Shown here piece after piece: positions 20,464-47,491 of a stretch of DNA of 64,000 nt. Positions within the stretch are counted from its first letter, which is position 1. Every line of letters begins with the position of its first letter. The stretch lies in assembly GCF_002854065.1 (NCBI RefSeq), contig NZ_CP024147.1. The stretch is one strand, 5' to 3'. Origin of the DNA: Escherichia coli. Its GTDB lineage: Bacteria > Pseudomonadota > Gammaproteobacteria > Enterobacterales > Enterobacteriaceae. Below the pieces are notes generated by a model. That model did not search any database, had not been told where the DNA came from, and worked only from the letters and a program-made list of their open reading frames with translations. The position numbers and the translations under genes were made by a program.

Positions 20464-20559
20464 ATGCTGGGTAATATGAATGTTTTTATGGCAGTACTGG
20501 GAATAATTTTATTTTCTGGTTTTCTGGCCGCGTATTTCAGCCACAAATGGGATGACTAA
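20464..20559 (+). CDS. mgtS: 31-aa small inner-membrane protein (MgtS/YneM-type)
   Basis: ATG CTG GGT AAT ... GAT GAC TAA translates to MLGNMNVFMAVLGIILFSGFLAAYFSHKWDD; too short for the ORF track. Confidence 0.8.
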   Translation: MLGNMNVFMAVLGIILFSGFLAAYFSHKWDD

Positions 20560-20586
20560 TGAACGGAGATAATCCCTCACCTAACC

Positions 20587-20625
20587 GGCCCCTTGTTACA
20601 GTTGTGTACAAGGGGCCTGATTTTT
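20587..20625 (+). terminator. intrinsic terminator after mgtS
   Basis: Stem GGCCCCTTGT/ACAAGGGGCC followed by TGATTTTT. Confidence 0.7.
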
Positions 20626-20635
20626 ATGACGGCGA

Positions 20636-20738
20636 AAAAAAACCGCCAGTAAACCGGCGGTGAATGCTTGCATGGATAGATTTGTGTTTTGCTTTTACGC
20701 TAACAGGCATTTTCCTGCACTGATAACGGATCGTTGAC
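20636..20738 (-). ncRNA. mgrR: candidate PhoP-dependent small RNA (MgrR-like), ~100 nt; ends approximate
   Basis: Minus-strand intrinsic terminator at 20635-20662 (CCGCCGGTTTACTGGCGG then U8) lies ~100 nt downstream of a PhoP-box-like direct repeat at 20768-20784; no ORF; location between mgtS and dgcZ matches the known mgrR locus. Ends are inferred, not mapped. Confidence 0.5.
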
Positions 20739-20767
20739 ACAGTAGCATCAGTTTTCTCAATGAATGT

Positions 20768-32126: not shown

Positions 32127-32702
32127 CTACGGCAGTGCTGGCCATTCAATATCCTGTGCAGTTGACGTATCAACACGGTTCAGCAACACCCGATACTTTT
32201 TCCAGGCTTCCAGCAATGAGGTTTCTTCCTCCGTTGCGATTTCCAGATCTACAGCATCCTGAAGTGGCGCAATATGCTCACTGGCTACCTGCATCAGGCT
32301 GTTTTTTGTTTCTTCCGCCTCCCGGATCCGGAACAGTTTTTCTGCTTCTGCATCTTTCACCCAGGCTGTGCCGTTCCACTTCTGAAACTCCCCTTCCGGC
32401 GATAACCAGGTAACATTTTCCGGTAACGGACCGAGTTCAGAAATAAATAACGCGTCCCCTGACGCTACGTCATAAACCGTTTTACCCCGATGGTCTTCAA
32501 CGAGATGCCACGATGCCTCATCACTGTTGAAAACAGCCACAAAGCCAGCAGGAATATCTGGCGGTGCAATATCGGTACTGTTTGCTGGCAGACCTGTATG
32601 AGGCGGAATATATGCATCACCTTCACCAATAAATTCATTAGTTCCGGCCAGCAGATTATAAATTTTTATGGTCCGTGGTTGTTCACTCATTCTGAATGCC
32701 AT
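32127..32702 (-). CDS. tfaQ: tail fibre assembly protein (Tfa)
   Basis: 191-aa ORF of the lambda Tfa/Mu U type; start overlaps the stop of the upstream tail-fibre fragment. Confidence 0.85.
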
Positions 32703-38905: not shown

Positions 38906-39098
38906 TTTTAAATCCAACGACAGACGGCTGGCATTTAAGTATTGTGAAATATTATCAAATGTAATCATCATTGATTTACAAAAGATACATTTTGCCCCGA
39001 AAGGATTCATGTCAGAAACATCAAAAGATGATGTTCTATACTGGGAACCATGACAACACGGGCATCTAAAGTGAATATGGTTTGTAATATTGTCTACC

Positions 39099-39311
39099 TC
39101 AAAGCGCCACTACATGAACAGCGGCAGGACCTTTAGGTCCGTTCTCAATACCAAATTCAACTTCCTGATTCTCAGTTAATGTTTTGAAATCGTTGCTCTG
39201 AATTGCTGAGAAATGGACAAACACATCTTTGCTGCCATCTTTCGGCGTGATGAAACCAAAACCTTTTTCAGGGTTAAACCATTTCACTAAACCAGTCATT
39301 TTGTTAGACAT
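39099..39311 (-). CDS. cspI: CspA-family cold shock protein
   Basis: 70 aa, [23 protein letters not shown]... with RNP1/RNP2 motifs. Confidence 0.9.
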
Positions 39312-39673
39312 AATTATTACCTTTTGAAGAAATTAGCCCTTGGGCAGAATGGTCCGAAAAAAAATATCAGAGAGAAAAACCAACAAGGAAATCCCAAGAG
39401 GTACAAATAATAAAATTATAACAATGACTGCTTCAGATAAATTTGTAACAAACCAGAACACCATTAACGCATGATTAACCACCCATAGCAAGGATTACTT
39501 TTGTAAAGAAAAACACAGCAATGAAAGAATAGCTTTATTTATTAATAAAACGTGTCATTCTGATTAAGACCTTTTATCTTACCCTTAAGATTTCAGGAAT
39601 TTTGGCTCATGGAAGAGTCCTTTTTATTTAAATTTTACATTCCGCGATGTAAATGTTCCGATTTAATATTACC

Positions 39674-40698
<1,025 letters not shown>

Positions 40699-40702
<4 letters not shown>

Positions 40703-41010
40703 AGATATTTATGATGAGGACGCTCGTGCTTATTGGCAGGATTTTCAATCTTAAAGGAGTACTGATGCTGCAGATAAGACTCAACTTTTTCTGACAATTT
40801 TTCTGCTACTTCCAGGAAGACTTGCCGGACGCTCCTTCTGGCTGCTGCCTCATAAAACTCCAGCGCAGCTCCTTCAACACGGTCCATGGCGACATCCAGG
40901 TCAAAAATTTCACCGTCAAAGCGTTCTTTGTCCTGTAAGGCTACAGTTACCGTAACTTTGTTCTCAAAATTACGGACTCCTTTCACAACCAGTTCATAGT
41001 CTTGAGTCAT
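40699..41010 (-). CDS. ydfR: uncharacterized protein encoded between holin and endolysin
   Basis: 103-aa ORF overlapping the endolysin start by 4 nt (ATGA). Confidence 0.7.
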
Positions 41011-41014
41011 TGGA

Positions 41015-41230
41015 TTACTCTCCTCTCGCAGCCTTACGCCTGTCTTCTTTAATCTTGAAATAAAGATTTGTCAGATACGTCAGCAGGCCAAAAACCAGGC
41101 TACCCAGCACACCGATTGCAGCCCACTGTGACGGAGTTACTTTATCGAGTAACTGCAATGCCCAGAAACCAGCATTACCCGCCGATGTGCCATAGGCAAC
41201 ACCTGTTGTTAACTTATCCATTGATTTCAT
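41015..41230 (-). CDS. essQ: S21-type holin (pinholin)
   Basis: 71 aa from [28 protein letters not shown]... with two TM segments; track ORF extends upstream to 41305. Confidence 0.85.
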
Positions 41231-41449
41231 ATCCTCACCCCGATGTACACGGATGGTGCAATATGTTTGAAAAGATCGGAGTCTACGGGGTAGTTTTGAC
41301 AGCACACGCTGTTCTCAACGGCGCTAAAGAAACATACACATTAAAAATGTGAGTAATTATTTTGAAAGAAAGTCATATATAAAATAATAATACGAGAAAT
41401 GTTTTCATATTTAGTGTACTGTATACGGCCATTTATACAGGAAAAGCCT

Positions 41450-41620
41450 ATGTCAGAACGTAAAGACTCAAAATCACGCCGTAATTATCTCGTTAAATGT
41501 TCCTGCCCAAACTGCACCCAAGAGTCAGAACACAGTTTTTCAAGAGTACAAAAAGGTGCCCTTTTGATCTGCCCTCATTGCAACAAAGTATTCCAGACAA
41601 ATCTTAAAGCTGCAGCCTGA
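41450..41620 (+). CDS. 56-aa zinc-ribbon small protein (CPNC-x17-CPHC)
   Basis: ATG at 41450 with AGGAAAAG upstream; two CxxC pairs. Confidence 0.6.
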   Translation: MSERKDSKSRRNYLVKCSCPNCTQESEHSFSRVQKGALLICPHCNKVFQTNLKAAA

Positions 41621-41677: not shown

Positions 41678-41703
41678 ATAAAAAACCCGCCTGAGCGGGT
41701 TTG
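41678..41703 (-). terminator. minus-strand intrinsic terminator ~280 nt downstream of cspB
   Basis: AACCCGC-CTGA-GCGGGTT with a U-run on the minus strand. Confidence 0.6.
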
Positions 41704-41983
41704 AGATTGTGGTGCTTTTTGTGGGAGTCATCCACTTACGCACTTTGTTTTGCCATGCCAGCAGTTAGCTTCTGCTGTAAAACTATTCATGCCGCAAACC
41801 TGCACTTCACCACAATGGTTAGCATACTTTTCCTGATTAAGATTTTGCCAAATATGCTGGCCATTGTTTCATGTATTGGACCTCCTTAATTTTTATTAAA
41901 GAAATCCAATATTCACTACTCTGTCCGTATCTCTACTCAGGCATCAGCCTTCTTCGTTATCGTATACAGACGAGCGATGAATT

Positions 41984-42199
41984 TTAATCAGTAATGATGA
42001 CATTTGCTGCTGCAGGACCTTTAGCACCACTCTCTATAGAGAAGGTAACCTTTTGACCTTCAAATAAGGTTCGATAATTATCATTCTGAATCGCAGAAAA
42101 ATGCACAAACACATCTTTACTACCATCAACAGGAGAAATAAAGCCGAAACCTTTATCAGCGTTAAACCATTTTACTAAACCAGTCATTTTATTTGACAT
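41984..42199 (-). CDS. cspB: CspA-family cold shock protein
   Basis: 71 aa, [23 protein letters not shown]... Confidence 0.9.
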
Positions 42200-42490
42200 T
42201 CTACATTCCTTAACTTGAGCCTTTCGGCATAAATGGTTTGCATAACAGAAACGACTTCGTACTTAATTGGAGAGACTCAAAGAAGGAATAAGTGAATAAC
42301 ACCTGAAATGAGAACTGCTTTAGTAAACTACTTCGTATATCGTCTGTTCTTCAAACCGACGCAGTCATTAACTCATAGTTGAACATATGAAGCAATGTTT
42401 ATTTTAGACATCCAGCCACCTTCAACCCTATCAAAAAAGTAGTTTTCTCCAGGAACGTGTGTATGGTGCACCAGGTTATCAGTATTAAGG

Positions 42491-42724
42491 AGTTTTTCTG
42501 TCCCCTAAAATGACAGGAATTGTCAAAAACTTTGACTACAAAAGCAGCAAAGGTCTTATATCCCCATCCGATGGCGTATCGATGCCCAGCTTCAGGTTTC
42601 AGCTCTCAATCTTCGAGATGCAGAAGAAATTACCACAGGATTACGCGTGGAATTTTGCCGGATAAATGGTTCGCGTGGACCTTCAACTCCCAATGTTTAT
42701 CCTGGGATGAGATTCAATATCTCT
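42491..42724 (+). pseudogene. cspF: cspF-like cold-shock gene, apparently frameshifted
   Basis: Frame A (ATG 42491) encodes [22 protein letters not shown] then leaves the cold-shock-domain pattern; a second frame from ~42556 encodes ...[20 protein letters not shown] (domain C-terminus) and runs on without the expected stop. Confidence 0.5.
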
Positions 42725-42744
42725 ATTGCCCCATTTAAAGCACA

Positions 42745-42874: not shown

Positions 42875-44516
<1,642 letters not shown>

Positions 44517-45039: not shown

Positions 45040-46059
45040 TTATTCAGAAAAAGTGAGTAAGACTTTGCAGCAATGTTTTTGATCCTGTTCAAATAAACTA
45101 ATGGCATCAGCAACATGCTGGAAATCAAACGTATGGGTAATTAATTTTTCTGGTTTAATTAACCCTTTACTTAACCAGTCGATAACGACCGGAAATTTAT
45201 TTGCATTTAAGCGTGAAGAGAAAATAGATAGTTCTTTTCCGGTAATTCCTTGCTGAATCACTTCAGAAGGTTCACTGGAGAAGCCCATCAATACAATACG
45301 TGCCGCTGGAGAAGCCAGCGTTACGGCCTCTTTCAGGATAGAAGGATGACAAGCCGCATCAATAATTAATGTCGGCTTTATGCCTTTTTCAGCGAAAATC
45401 TCGCCAAGCGGTGTCTGGCTGTTATTAATCACCCAGTCAGCCCCGCTCTCTTTCGCTTTTTCCAGTCGTTCATCAATGCGATCGGCAACAATCACATTTT
45501 TAACGTTATAGACGCCTTTTAATACCTGAACGATCGTCAGGCCGATTGGACCGGCACCGTAAACCAGAACGGTATCATTTTCAGTCGGTTGACCATGACC
45601 GGTTACGTTAGCCGCAATGGTAAAAGGTTCGATCATCACCGCATATTGATCGGCCACTGCTTCAGGAATTTTCCACGCATTTTTTGCCGGAACCACAGCA
45701 TATTCACTGAAACCACCGTCAGCGTGCACACCTAATACAGCGAGTGTCGTACAAACGTTCGGCTTACCTATAGAGCACGGATAGCAATGACCACAGCTGA
45801 CCACCGGATCGACAGCAACACGTTCACCGACTCTGGCGCTTTCCACACCTTCACCCACCACATCAATGACGCCAAAGAATTCATGTCCAATGACGCGCGG
45901 ATATTTCGCAAAAGGATTATGCCCACGATAAATATGGCTATCTGAACCACAAATTCCGGCAAGTTTCACTTTTACTCGTACTTCACCCGCTGACGGGGTG
46001 GGTATTTCACGTTCGACAATCGCCAGTTGATTCGGTTTTTCAATTAATATGCTTTTCAT
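45040..46059 (-). CDS. rspB: zinc-dependent alcohol-dehydrogenase-family protein (starvation-sensing operon)
   Basis: MDR motifs (GHEFFGVI, GAGPIGL); ~339 aa from the ATG at 46059. Confidence 0.9.
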   Translation of the reverse strand: MKSILIEKPNQLAIVEREIPTPSAGEVRVKVKLAGICGSDSHIYRGHNPFAKYPRVIGHEFFGVIDVVGEGVESARVGERVAVDPVVSCGHCYPCSIGKPNVCTTLAVLGVHADGGFSEYAVVPAKNAWKIPEAVADQYAVMIEPFTIAANVTGHGQPTENDTVLVYGAGPIGLTIVQVLKGVYNVKNVIVADRIDERLEKAKESGADWVINNSQTPLGEIFAEKGIKPTLIIDAACHPSILKEAVTLASPAARIVLMGFSSEPSEVIQQGITGKELSIFSSRLNANKFPVVIDWLSKGLIKPEKLITHTFDFQHVADAISLFEQDQKHCCKVLLTFSE

Positions 46060-46070
46060 TATCTTACTCC

Positions 46071-47285
46071 TTACCAGTTCCACAGCGTGCCATCTTCCAG
46101 ACGTGCGACTGGTAGATAAGCAGGTTCATAGGGATATTTCGCCGCCAGCTTTTCATCGAATTCGATGCCAAGACCCGGTTTGTCTCCCGGATGCATATAG
46201 CCGTTATCGAAAGTCCAGTTGTGCGGGAAGACTTCGAGCATTTGTTCGGAATAACCCATGTATTCCTGGACACCGAAATTGGGGACCCACAGATCAAAGT
46301 GCAGCGCTGCAGCCATGCAGACTGGTGACAAATCGGAAGGACCGTGTGAGCCAGTACGTACCTGATACAGCGAAGCAAAATCGGCAATCCGGCGCATACC
46401 GGTAATTCCGCCTGCATGGGTCAGCGTGGTGCGGATATAATCGATGAGTTGCTCTTCAATCAGTTGTTTGCAGTCCCAGATGCTGTTGAAGACTTCACCC
46501 ACTGCGATGGGTGTGACGGTATGTTGGCGAATGAGACGGAAGCATTCCTGGTTTTCCGCAGGCGTCGGGTCTTCCATCCAGAACATGCGATAATCTTCAA
46601 TGCTTTTACCAAAGCGCGCCGCTTCAATAGGCGTTAAGCGATGGTGCATGTCATGCAGCAAATGTTCATTAAAACCAAACTTGTTACGTACCGCGTCAAA
46701 CAATTTCGGCATGAAATCGAGGTATTTCTCCGTCGACCACAGCTGCTCTTCCGGCCACTGTCCTTTGGTTGCGGGTTCATAAGCCAGACCTTTACCTTTC
46801 GACATGCCGTAGGTGGTTTTCATACCAGGGATTCCGCACTGCACGCGGATGGCTTTGAATCCCAGCTCCTGATGACGGGCATAATCATCCAGAGCTTCAT
46901 CAATACTGTGACCGGTGGTATGGCAATAAACCATCACCCCTTCACGAGACGCGCCGCCGAGTAACTGGTAAAGCGGCATGTTGGCAGCTTTGGCTTTAAT
47001 ATCCCACAGCGCCATATCAACCGCTGAAATAGCCGACATCGTAACCGGACCGCGACGCCAGTAAGCACCTTTATAGAAAAACTGCCAGATATCTTCGATA
47101 CGGTGCGCATCGCGACCAATAAGCTGCGGACAAAGGTGATCCTGCAAATAAGAGGCCACGGAAAGCTCACGTCCATTGAGGGTGGCATCCCCAAGGCCCG
47201 TAATACCGTCCTCAGTGGTGATTTTTAATGTGACGAAATTACGCCCCGGACAGGTAACAAAAACTTCAGCCTTTACGATCTTCAT
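46071..47285 (-). CDS. rspA: enolase-superfamily mannonate-dehydratase-like protein
   Basis: ~404 aa from the ATG at 47285; overlaps or abuts rspB. Confidence 0.9.
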
Positions 47286-47491
47286 GTTCGATTCCTTGCA
47301 TCGCTTGTCGTGATGCATGAAATCTACGCAACTGAGCTACTACCATACAAGTATGAGGATCAAAAAAAGCCGGAGTGATCACAAAAAAAAGGCGTATATT
47401 TTCGCCATGAATGGTTGACAAAAGATGAAATAGAGTACCTTTTATCAGCTGACGCTTCCTCGTATCTTATTGATAAAATAGATTTATGTCC

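Follow-up and report, generated by a model that had tools for sequence, protein, structure and literature searches.

The DUF1327 gene ydfR between the holin and endolysin genes of a decayed Qin prophage of Escherichia coli: a widespread late-operon gene with a tentative link to RNase E

What does a 103-codon gene do when it is packed between the holin and the endolysin genes of a prophage? The question is raised by a stretch of 64,000 nucleotides of Escherichia coli DNA (RefSeq assembly GCF_002854065.1, contig NZ_CP024147.1), hereafter called the window, for which an initial annotation had placed such an open reading frame, under the name ydfR, between the two lysis genes and had listed three possible roles for it: lysis timing, antiholin-like regulation or unrelated cargo. 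The placement holds, with the addition that the gene lies on the minus strand, and its neighbors match the Pfam families Phage_holin_2_1 and Phage_lysozyme (Table 1). The name is correct as well, because the product is identical over 103 of 103 residues to YdfR of E. coli K-12 MG1655 (b1555, UniProt P76160). The protein also matches Pfam DUF1327 (PF07041) over profile positions 1-93 of 93 with 179.9 bits (E = 1.1e-53), for a curated cut-off of 25 bits. The object is hence an already catalogued gene of the E. coli Qin prophage with nothing new in the gene itself, and a K-12 gene listing of 2024 still counts it among the uncharacterized genes (throughout, R stands for the endolysin gene, rrrQ in the window).

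Table 1. Features of the lysis region and of ydfR in the window (positions count from the first nucleotide of the window)
Feature	Position	Strand	Remarks
ydfR coding sequence, 103 codons + stop	40699..41010	minus	product identical to K-12 YdfR (b1555)
Conserved DUF1327 core, codons 1-72	40795..41010	minus	from alignment and model (pLDDT 82-96, residues 1-70)
Allele-specific C-terminal tail, codons 73-103	40699..40794	minus	continuation of the helix, then disorder; unrelated tails in other alleles (total lengths of 104 to 287 aa)
Mosaic breakpoint	40708..40713	minus	similarity to longer alleles (L039, L040, L043) ends and resumes in the R leader
ATGA overlap of ydfR stop and rrrQ start	40699..40702	minus	
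Holin/ydfR junction	41011..41027	minus	GAGAGGAGAG in the last holin codons, TAA, 4-nt spacer
essQ, S21-type class II holin (pinholin family), 71 aa	41015..41230	minus	starts with MKSM
rrrQ, 177-aa phage lysozyme	40169..40702	minus	SAR-like hydrophobic N-terminal segment; Pfam Phage_lysozyme match
rzpQ, Rz-like spanin (DUF2514)	39674..40172	minus	frameshifted
rzoQ, Rz1-like lipoprotein	39724..39978	minus	embedded in rzpQ; intact
Terminator-like hairpin with T-run	41683..41702	minus	between cspB and the lysis cassette
Remnant of late-gene antiterminator Q	42875..43255	minus	126 aa, 250 aa in K-12
IS3-family element	43295..44508		removed the N-terminus of Q; ORFs 43295..43642 and 43462..44508

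The locus is a Qin-like remnant, located on the E. coli chromosome between ydfJ and the rspBA/ynfB/speG region. The Qin prophage of K-12 has the same gene order, essQ-ydfR-rrrQ-rzpQ between cspB and cspI, and the DNA of the cassette is 99.4% identical, but the remnant in the window is more decayed: rzpQ is frameshifted and cspF seemingly so, the IS3-family element has cut Q, and nothing is left of the early region, with rspB/rspA-like genes found at 45040..47318. The holin EssQ scores 117 bits against Phage_holin_2_1, the family of the P21 S holin, and its MKSM double-start motif lies at 41219..41230. At 499 nt, the frameshifted rzpQ differs from its K-12 counterpart of 498 nt; it is split into the ORFs 40017..40172 and 39674..40045.

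Several further elements were recorded around the cassette and elsewhere in the window. Leaders matching the cspA-type thermoregulator of Rfam precede cspB and cspI (41683..42360 and 39072..39457, minus strand), and the lysis cassette lies between them. A small zinc-ribbon gene, ynfU (41399..41620, plus strand; Pfam YnfU, 107 bits), is found between cspB and the holin gene; its listed start is 41399 and the annotation of related strains begins 17 codons later. On the plus strand too, cspF (42510..42738) is seemingly frameshifted, and a strain that is 100% identical over positions 40100..41400 of the window, the lysis-cassette stretch, has a pseudogene annotation for it. Rfam also matched isrC (43327..43449) inside the IS3-family element and, outside the cassette, the STnc560 sRNA (282 bits, 20553..20766, minus strand) and IS009 (227 bits, 32161..32359, minus strand).

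What kind of protein is YdfR? In family alignments, the conservation of DUF1327 is confined to residues 1 to ~72, with M1, Y5, L7, Y53, E54 and A57 invariant and a motif EGxxLE[FY]YEA where the helix begins. The AlphaFold model, computed from a 20-sequence alignment and confident over the core, begins with an antiparallel three-stranded sheet (residues 5-14, 18-27 and 34-43), continues as a long helix over residues 50-89 and ends in disorder. The protein is acidic (pI 5.6 as a whole and 4.6 for the fragment 1-72, with a GRAVY of -0.61), as is the core of all relatives tested (pI 4.6-5.3). The initial annotation had seen neither a transmembrane segment nor a catalytic motif and had judged that the role could not be read from sequence, and on these points it was right: the highest 19-residue Kyte-Doolittle mean is only 0.67, and searches of Pfam, NCBIfam, PHROGs, PADLOC, PDB sequences and folds returned nothing beyond "unknown function", the wording carried by all PHROG matches. 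The structure prediction that it had proposed gave the confident core model but no informative fold match, as Foldseek comparisons of the model with the PDB and with viral models were without significant hits and the PDB sequence search stayed at chance level (E ≥ 0.6). Clear homology to a known non-lysis family, which it had named, together with unchanged lysis timing on deletion, as the refuting observation, did not emerge either, DUF1327 being the only Pfam family matched. Moreover, no similarity to the RNase E binders RraA, RraB, RapZ, Srd and Dip was detected by Pfam, NCBIfam, PDB sequence or fold searches, and YdfR does not combine the alpha-beta-beta-beta-alpha fold and the basic RNA-binding surface of a dsRBD.

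Sequence conservation identifies ydfR as a genuine gene under constraint instead of a fortuitous ORF: dN/dS values are mostly low, and homologues extend down to ~30% identity. Of eight informative pairs, six (the Qin allele against five other alleles, plus one within-clade pair) have a dN/dS of 0.19-0.28 over codons 1-70, which places the core under purifying selection in most comparisons; the two comparisons of Stx-type alleles gave ~0.9-1.1 with few substitutions. According to the ORF listing of the window, the frame opens with ATG. No structured RNA was matched by Rfam inside the gene, the thermoregulators of cspB and cspI being the only matches in its vicinity.

Since the protein of the window is identical to that of K-12, published data on YdfR apply to it directly. 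The sole functional study that we found is recent (Göpel et al., RNA Biol 2026; PMC13232886). In this work, RNase G served as bait in a two-hybrid library screen, from which YdfR(1-72) was recovered three times. The signals with RNase E constructs exceeded those with RNase G, and a fusion of full-length YdfR scored with residues 1-597 of RNase E. Furthermore, FLAG-tagged RNase E(1-598) co-eluted with Strep-YdfR and not with the negative control PtsN, and large, RapZ-like amounts of DNase-resistant nucleic acid co-purified with YdfR; the pull-down was performed without nuclease treatment, so that bridging by RNA is possible. Overexpression of YdfR caused no growth defect and changed few transcripts, and RNA-seq gave almost no ydfR reads in growing K-12 (PMC13232886). 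The interacting fragment, residues 1-72, coincides with the only part of the DUF1327 family that is conserved.

From these data and from the gene contexts given below we infer, tentatively, that YdfR is an accessory protein of the late operon which acts on host RNase E and/or RNA and does not belong to the lysis machinery. It would be a soluble, acidic, cytoplasmic protein, accessory to the late operons of lambdoid phages and made only when these are transcribed, with the ~72-residue N-terminal domain (three beta-strands and a helix) as its functional unit and a C-terminal tail that may be swapped. Its likeliest activity would be to bind the catalytic N-terminal half of RNase E, more weakly RNase G, and/or RNA, by which RNA decay might be adjusted late in infection; YdfR could in this way correspond, in temperate phages, to the proteins that lytic phages direct at RNase E. 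A more specific version is in our eyes doubtful: DUF1327 as a late temperate-phage effector docking on the catalytic half of RNase E/G and re-tuning RNA decay, for example by shielding the long late transcript, perhaps as an acidic mimic of nucleic acid and perhaps together with swappable partner modules.

How far does the distribution of the family bear on these proposals? Few prophage genes of E. coli are as widespread as ydfR: of 5,426 complete E. coli genomes, 3,571 (about two thirds) contain DNA resembling a part of the gene and 1,788 (about one third) a near-full-length match, and matches of at least 99% identity are present in 1,587 E. coli records. The family as a whole is narrow. An exhaustive HMMER scan found DUF1327 in 57 clusters among 1.84 billion representative proteins, and a pattern scan of 100,044 species, each represented by one genome, met it only in E. 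coli, in E. albertii and in two metagenome bins, the hits of which (79-84% identical to the query) are probably contaminating coliphage contigs. A 3,128-aa repeat protein (P0135; E = 2.7e-11 in the representative search) was rejected as a relative of YdfR because it scores only ~31 bits per repeat, its total being inflated by six near-identical repeats. The Qin-type late region also exists in a complete phage genome: the deposited 48.7-kb Escherichia phage PhiR42_1 (PV340562.1; L107) has the block Q-cspF-cspB-ynfU-essQ-ydfR-rrrQ-rzpQ-cspI-ynfN-gnsB, with Q intact and a YdfR identical to that of the window. A literature search for the source paper of the PhiR phages returned nothing relevant.

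The narrowness of the family is among the points in favor of a rival explanation that we hold to be rather unlikely, namely that YdfR is moron-like cargo apart from both lysis and RNase E, serving for instance in superinfection exclusion, defense or anti-defense, maybe together with the C-terminal modules and the convergent ORFs. The contexts of the family members speak for it too. All homologues examined are co-directional with the late genes, at varied sites: besides the post-holin position, DUF1327 genes were found after Rz with no adjoining holin (L092), after a holin of another family (PF16080; L093, 4001..4517, where a frameshift in an A-run yields ORFs of 72 and 107 aa) and between the tail genes M and L (L006), L and K (L007-L009) or I and J (L091). 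The distant members, in tail operons and after Rz, all score above the Pfam threshold. For L007 and L091, megablast against phage records found nothing and gpL is only ~53% identical to the gpL of Gifsy-2 and of a Yersinia phage; the host of these tail-operon relatives is probably of an enterobacterial lineage. In alleles other than that of Qin, DUF1327 is often followed by a small ORF in convergent orientation, and at least five different PHROG families are represented among these ORFs. Convergent ORFs of 182-186 aa, belonging to one uncharacterized family, were noted after DUF1327 in L007 (4273..4821, minus strand; phrog_18578) and in L092 (768..1328, minus strand), which hints at a two-gene cassette moving together.

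The same explanation could draw on the modular build of the alleles. Past residue ~72, DUF1327 proteins continue into unrelated, swapped tails and reach total lengths of 72 to 287 aa. The C-terminal part of the 268-aa allele of Stx2-86 occurs also as a separate 213-aa gene, and in Stx-type prophages of E. coli (L103-L105, 3282..5347) the order is holin, 213-aa gene, stand-alone 75-aa DUF1327 gene, convergent 95-aa ORF (phrog_10490) and endolysin. The two modules thus come either as one fused protein or as two genes, with their order reversed between the two forms, which suggests that DUF1327 and the 213-aa module work together. The latter matched no known family, and its structure model (mean pLDDT 48) was too poor for a fold search.

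Against cargo of this kind stands the way in which ydfR is built into the operon. No promoter-like or terminator-like site was seen flanking the gene in the window, so that it has neither of the two elements by which a moron is recognized, its own promoter and its own terminator; being packed between the holin gene, 4 nt away, and R, with which it overlaps, it would have no independent expression in a lysogen, and the near absence of ydfR reads in growing K-12 (PMC13232886) points in the same direction. In addition, PADLOC-DB has no match for YdfR, for the longer alleles or for the convergent neighbors. Among the three roles listed at the outset, unrelated cargo is the one that fits best, and the varied late-operon sites agree with a late-expressed function independent of lysis partners, which counts in favor of the RNase E reading as well.

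A second rival, which we regard as unlikely, keeps YdfR within lysis, as a cytoplasmic modulator that would time or restrain the pinholin/SAR-endolysin pathway, for instance by attaching to the charged, cytoplasmic C-terminal tail of the holin or by setting the amount of endolysin; were it true, YdfR would represent a new kind of soluble lysis regulator. One argument for it is the junction with the holin gene. In the window this junction reads GAGAGGAGAG-TAA-TCCA-ATG, a Shine-Dalgarno-like run for ydfR being embedded in the last holin codons. The survey of other phages for the same insertion, proposed in the initial annotation, found the ATG of DUF1327 exactly 4 nt past the stop of an S21-type holin gene in all 84 Escherichia phage and viral loci surveyed (80 from IMG/VR and four GenBank phages), a spacing that is kept despite identities of 70-100% for the holin and of 39-100% for DUF1327. 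In phage 24B (933W type), the post-holin slot with the same embedded Shine-Dalgarno run is used by a 177-aa endolysin, which places DUF1327 at the position that R takes in such cassettes. The members located after Rz (L092) and after the second holin family (L093), the endolysin start overlapping the ydfR stop in the Qin allele and the identical cassette of PhiR42_1 can be added on this side. So can an envelope phenotype, as the CPRG screen for envelope leakiness of Paradis-Bleau et al. (2014; cited in PMC13232886) includes the Keio ydfR mutant among the positives in its supplement, and essQ, ydfQ and ydfP do not appear in the supplementary files. This phenotype is plausibly explained by a polar effect, in which an outward promoter of the kanamycin cassette would drive the downstream SAR endolysin gene, and such possible polarity is a warning for any use of the mutant.

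The other observations argue against modulation of lysis. YdfR has no transmembrane segment, and neither Pfam, NCBIfam nor PHROG comparisons reveal similarity to a holin, an antiholin or an endolysin regulator. The holin of the window, moreover, already has the MKSM double start, which in published studies of S21 supplies the antiholin. DUF1327 is also dispensable with this type of holin: tblastn of phage records detected an S21-type holin in 438 records and DUF1327 in 100, so that about three quarters of the records with such a holin are without a DUF1327 match. The endolysin gene directly follows the holin gene in the three phages inspected, cdtI, 434 and 24B. DUF1327 is therefore neither always present in S21-type cassettes nor always beside lysis genes, as an obligate component would be, the tail-operon members having no adjoining lysis gene at all. 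Finally, overexpression was without effect on growth (PMC13232886).

The junction with the endolysin gene, which reads AAA-TAT-CTA-TGA-AC in the window, is variable within the family. The initial annotation had taken the ATGA formed by the ydfR TGA and the endolysin ATG as a sign of probable co-translation with the lysis genes; the overlap is there, but it does not stand as a conserved design, for among the surveyed loci only the 103-aa Qin allele has it. Other DUF1327 alleles end 50-63 nt or 319-452 nt before R, in the latter case with a convergent ORF in between. DNA comparison shows how the overlap arose: the Qin allele corresponds to the first ~99 codons of alleles of 174-243 aa, joined ~10 nt upstream of the R start, and 360-773 nt of the alleles L039, L040 and L043 are absent from it. 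As similarity is lost at 40713/40708 and found again within the R leader, the final ydfR codons and the overlap itself were built from this leader. With ydfR in the post-holin initiation slot and the endolysin start overlapping its stop, translation of the endolysin in the window probably follows that of ydfR, and no Shine-Dalgarno-like run was seen there ahead of the rrrQ ATG. Phage mEp460 has a similar R leader, also without such a run, and its R starts 55 nt past DUF1327; coupling to DUF1327 is thus not required for R expression in relatives. The only tie of ydfR to lysis shown in the window is positional, and both a leaning toward a lysis regulator and an antiholin-like role are unsupported; distant DUF1327 genes also sit after Rz or among tail genes.

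The weakest rival, that ydfR in the window is an inert relic, a truncated allele kept by linkage in a decaying prophage, can appeal to the truncated form of the Qin allele, to the cut Q, frameshifted rzpQ and missing early region and to the near absence of transcripts under standard growth (PMC13232886), but it is improbable in view of a conserved domain that is intact and identical to that of K-12, of the 1,587 records and 1,788 genomes mentioned above, of the low dN/dS in most allele comparisons and of the same allele in the complete genome of PhiR42_1.

We thus return to the tentative reading of YdfR as a late-operon accessory protein acting on RNase E and/or RNA. It does not account for the invariant 4-nt junction with the holin gene, which may reflect one successful insertion that was inherited, holin and DUF1327 being kept together by linkage. 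If the more specific docking proposal were true, a latent modulator of RNase E would be present in one third to two thirds of E. coli genomes, and low temperature might switch it on; the essQ-ydfR cluster is mentioned in the literature as cold-induced (PMC13232886), which could stem from read-through from cspB. The 72-residue core, the fixed post-holin start, the swappable tails, the partner module in fused and separate form and the tail-operon relatives make up a minimal unit for tests.

After K-12 YdfR itself, the closest known systems are DUF1327 alleles of greater length in lambdoid and Stx phages, such as gp055 of mEp460 (104 aa), an unannotated ORF of H-19B (114 aa), the allele of PhiR12_2 (169 aa) and gp05 of Stx2-86 (268 aa). 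They share with YdfR the N-terminal domain of ~72 residues, the start 4 nt past the stop of an S21-type holin gene and, downstream, a 177-aa endolysin of the same type as in the window. They differ from it in their unrelated C-terminal tails and in ending 50-452 nt ahead of the endolysin gene, with no overlap and often with a convergent ORF between. The S21 antiholin (S21-71), the classic regulator of holins of this type, is likewise encoded in the cassette and bears on the same holin, but it is a membrane protein, made as the longer of the products of the holin gene, whereas YdfR has a gene of its own, is soluble and lacks a transmembrane segment. With regard to RNA decay, YdfR is comparable to the phage proteins T4 Srd, T7 gp0.7 and phiKZ Dip, which act on RNase E, and to the host partners of the enzyme, RapZ and RraA/RraB, in that it is reported to associate with RNase E and, like RapZ, with the catalytic N-terminal half (PMC13232886). 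Compared with these phage proteins and host partners, the small, phage-encoded YdfR is without similarity in sequence or fold and comes from the late operon of a temperate phage. Should its association with RNase E prove physiological, the RNA-decay machinery of the host would be a target of lambdoid phages as it is of T4, T7 and phiKZ, attacked in their case from a gene of the late operon.
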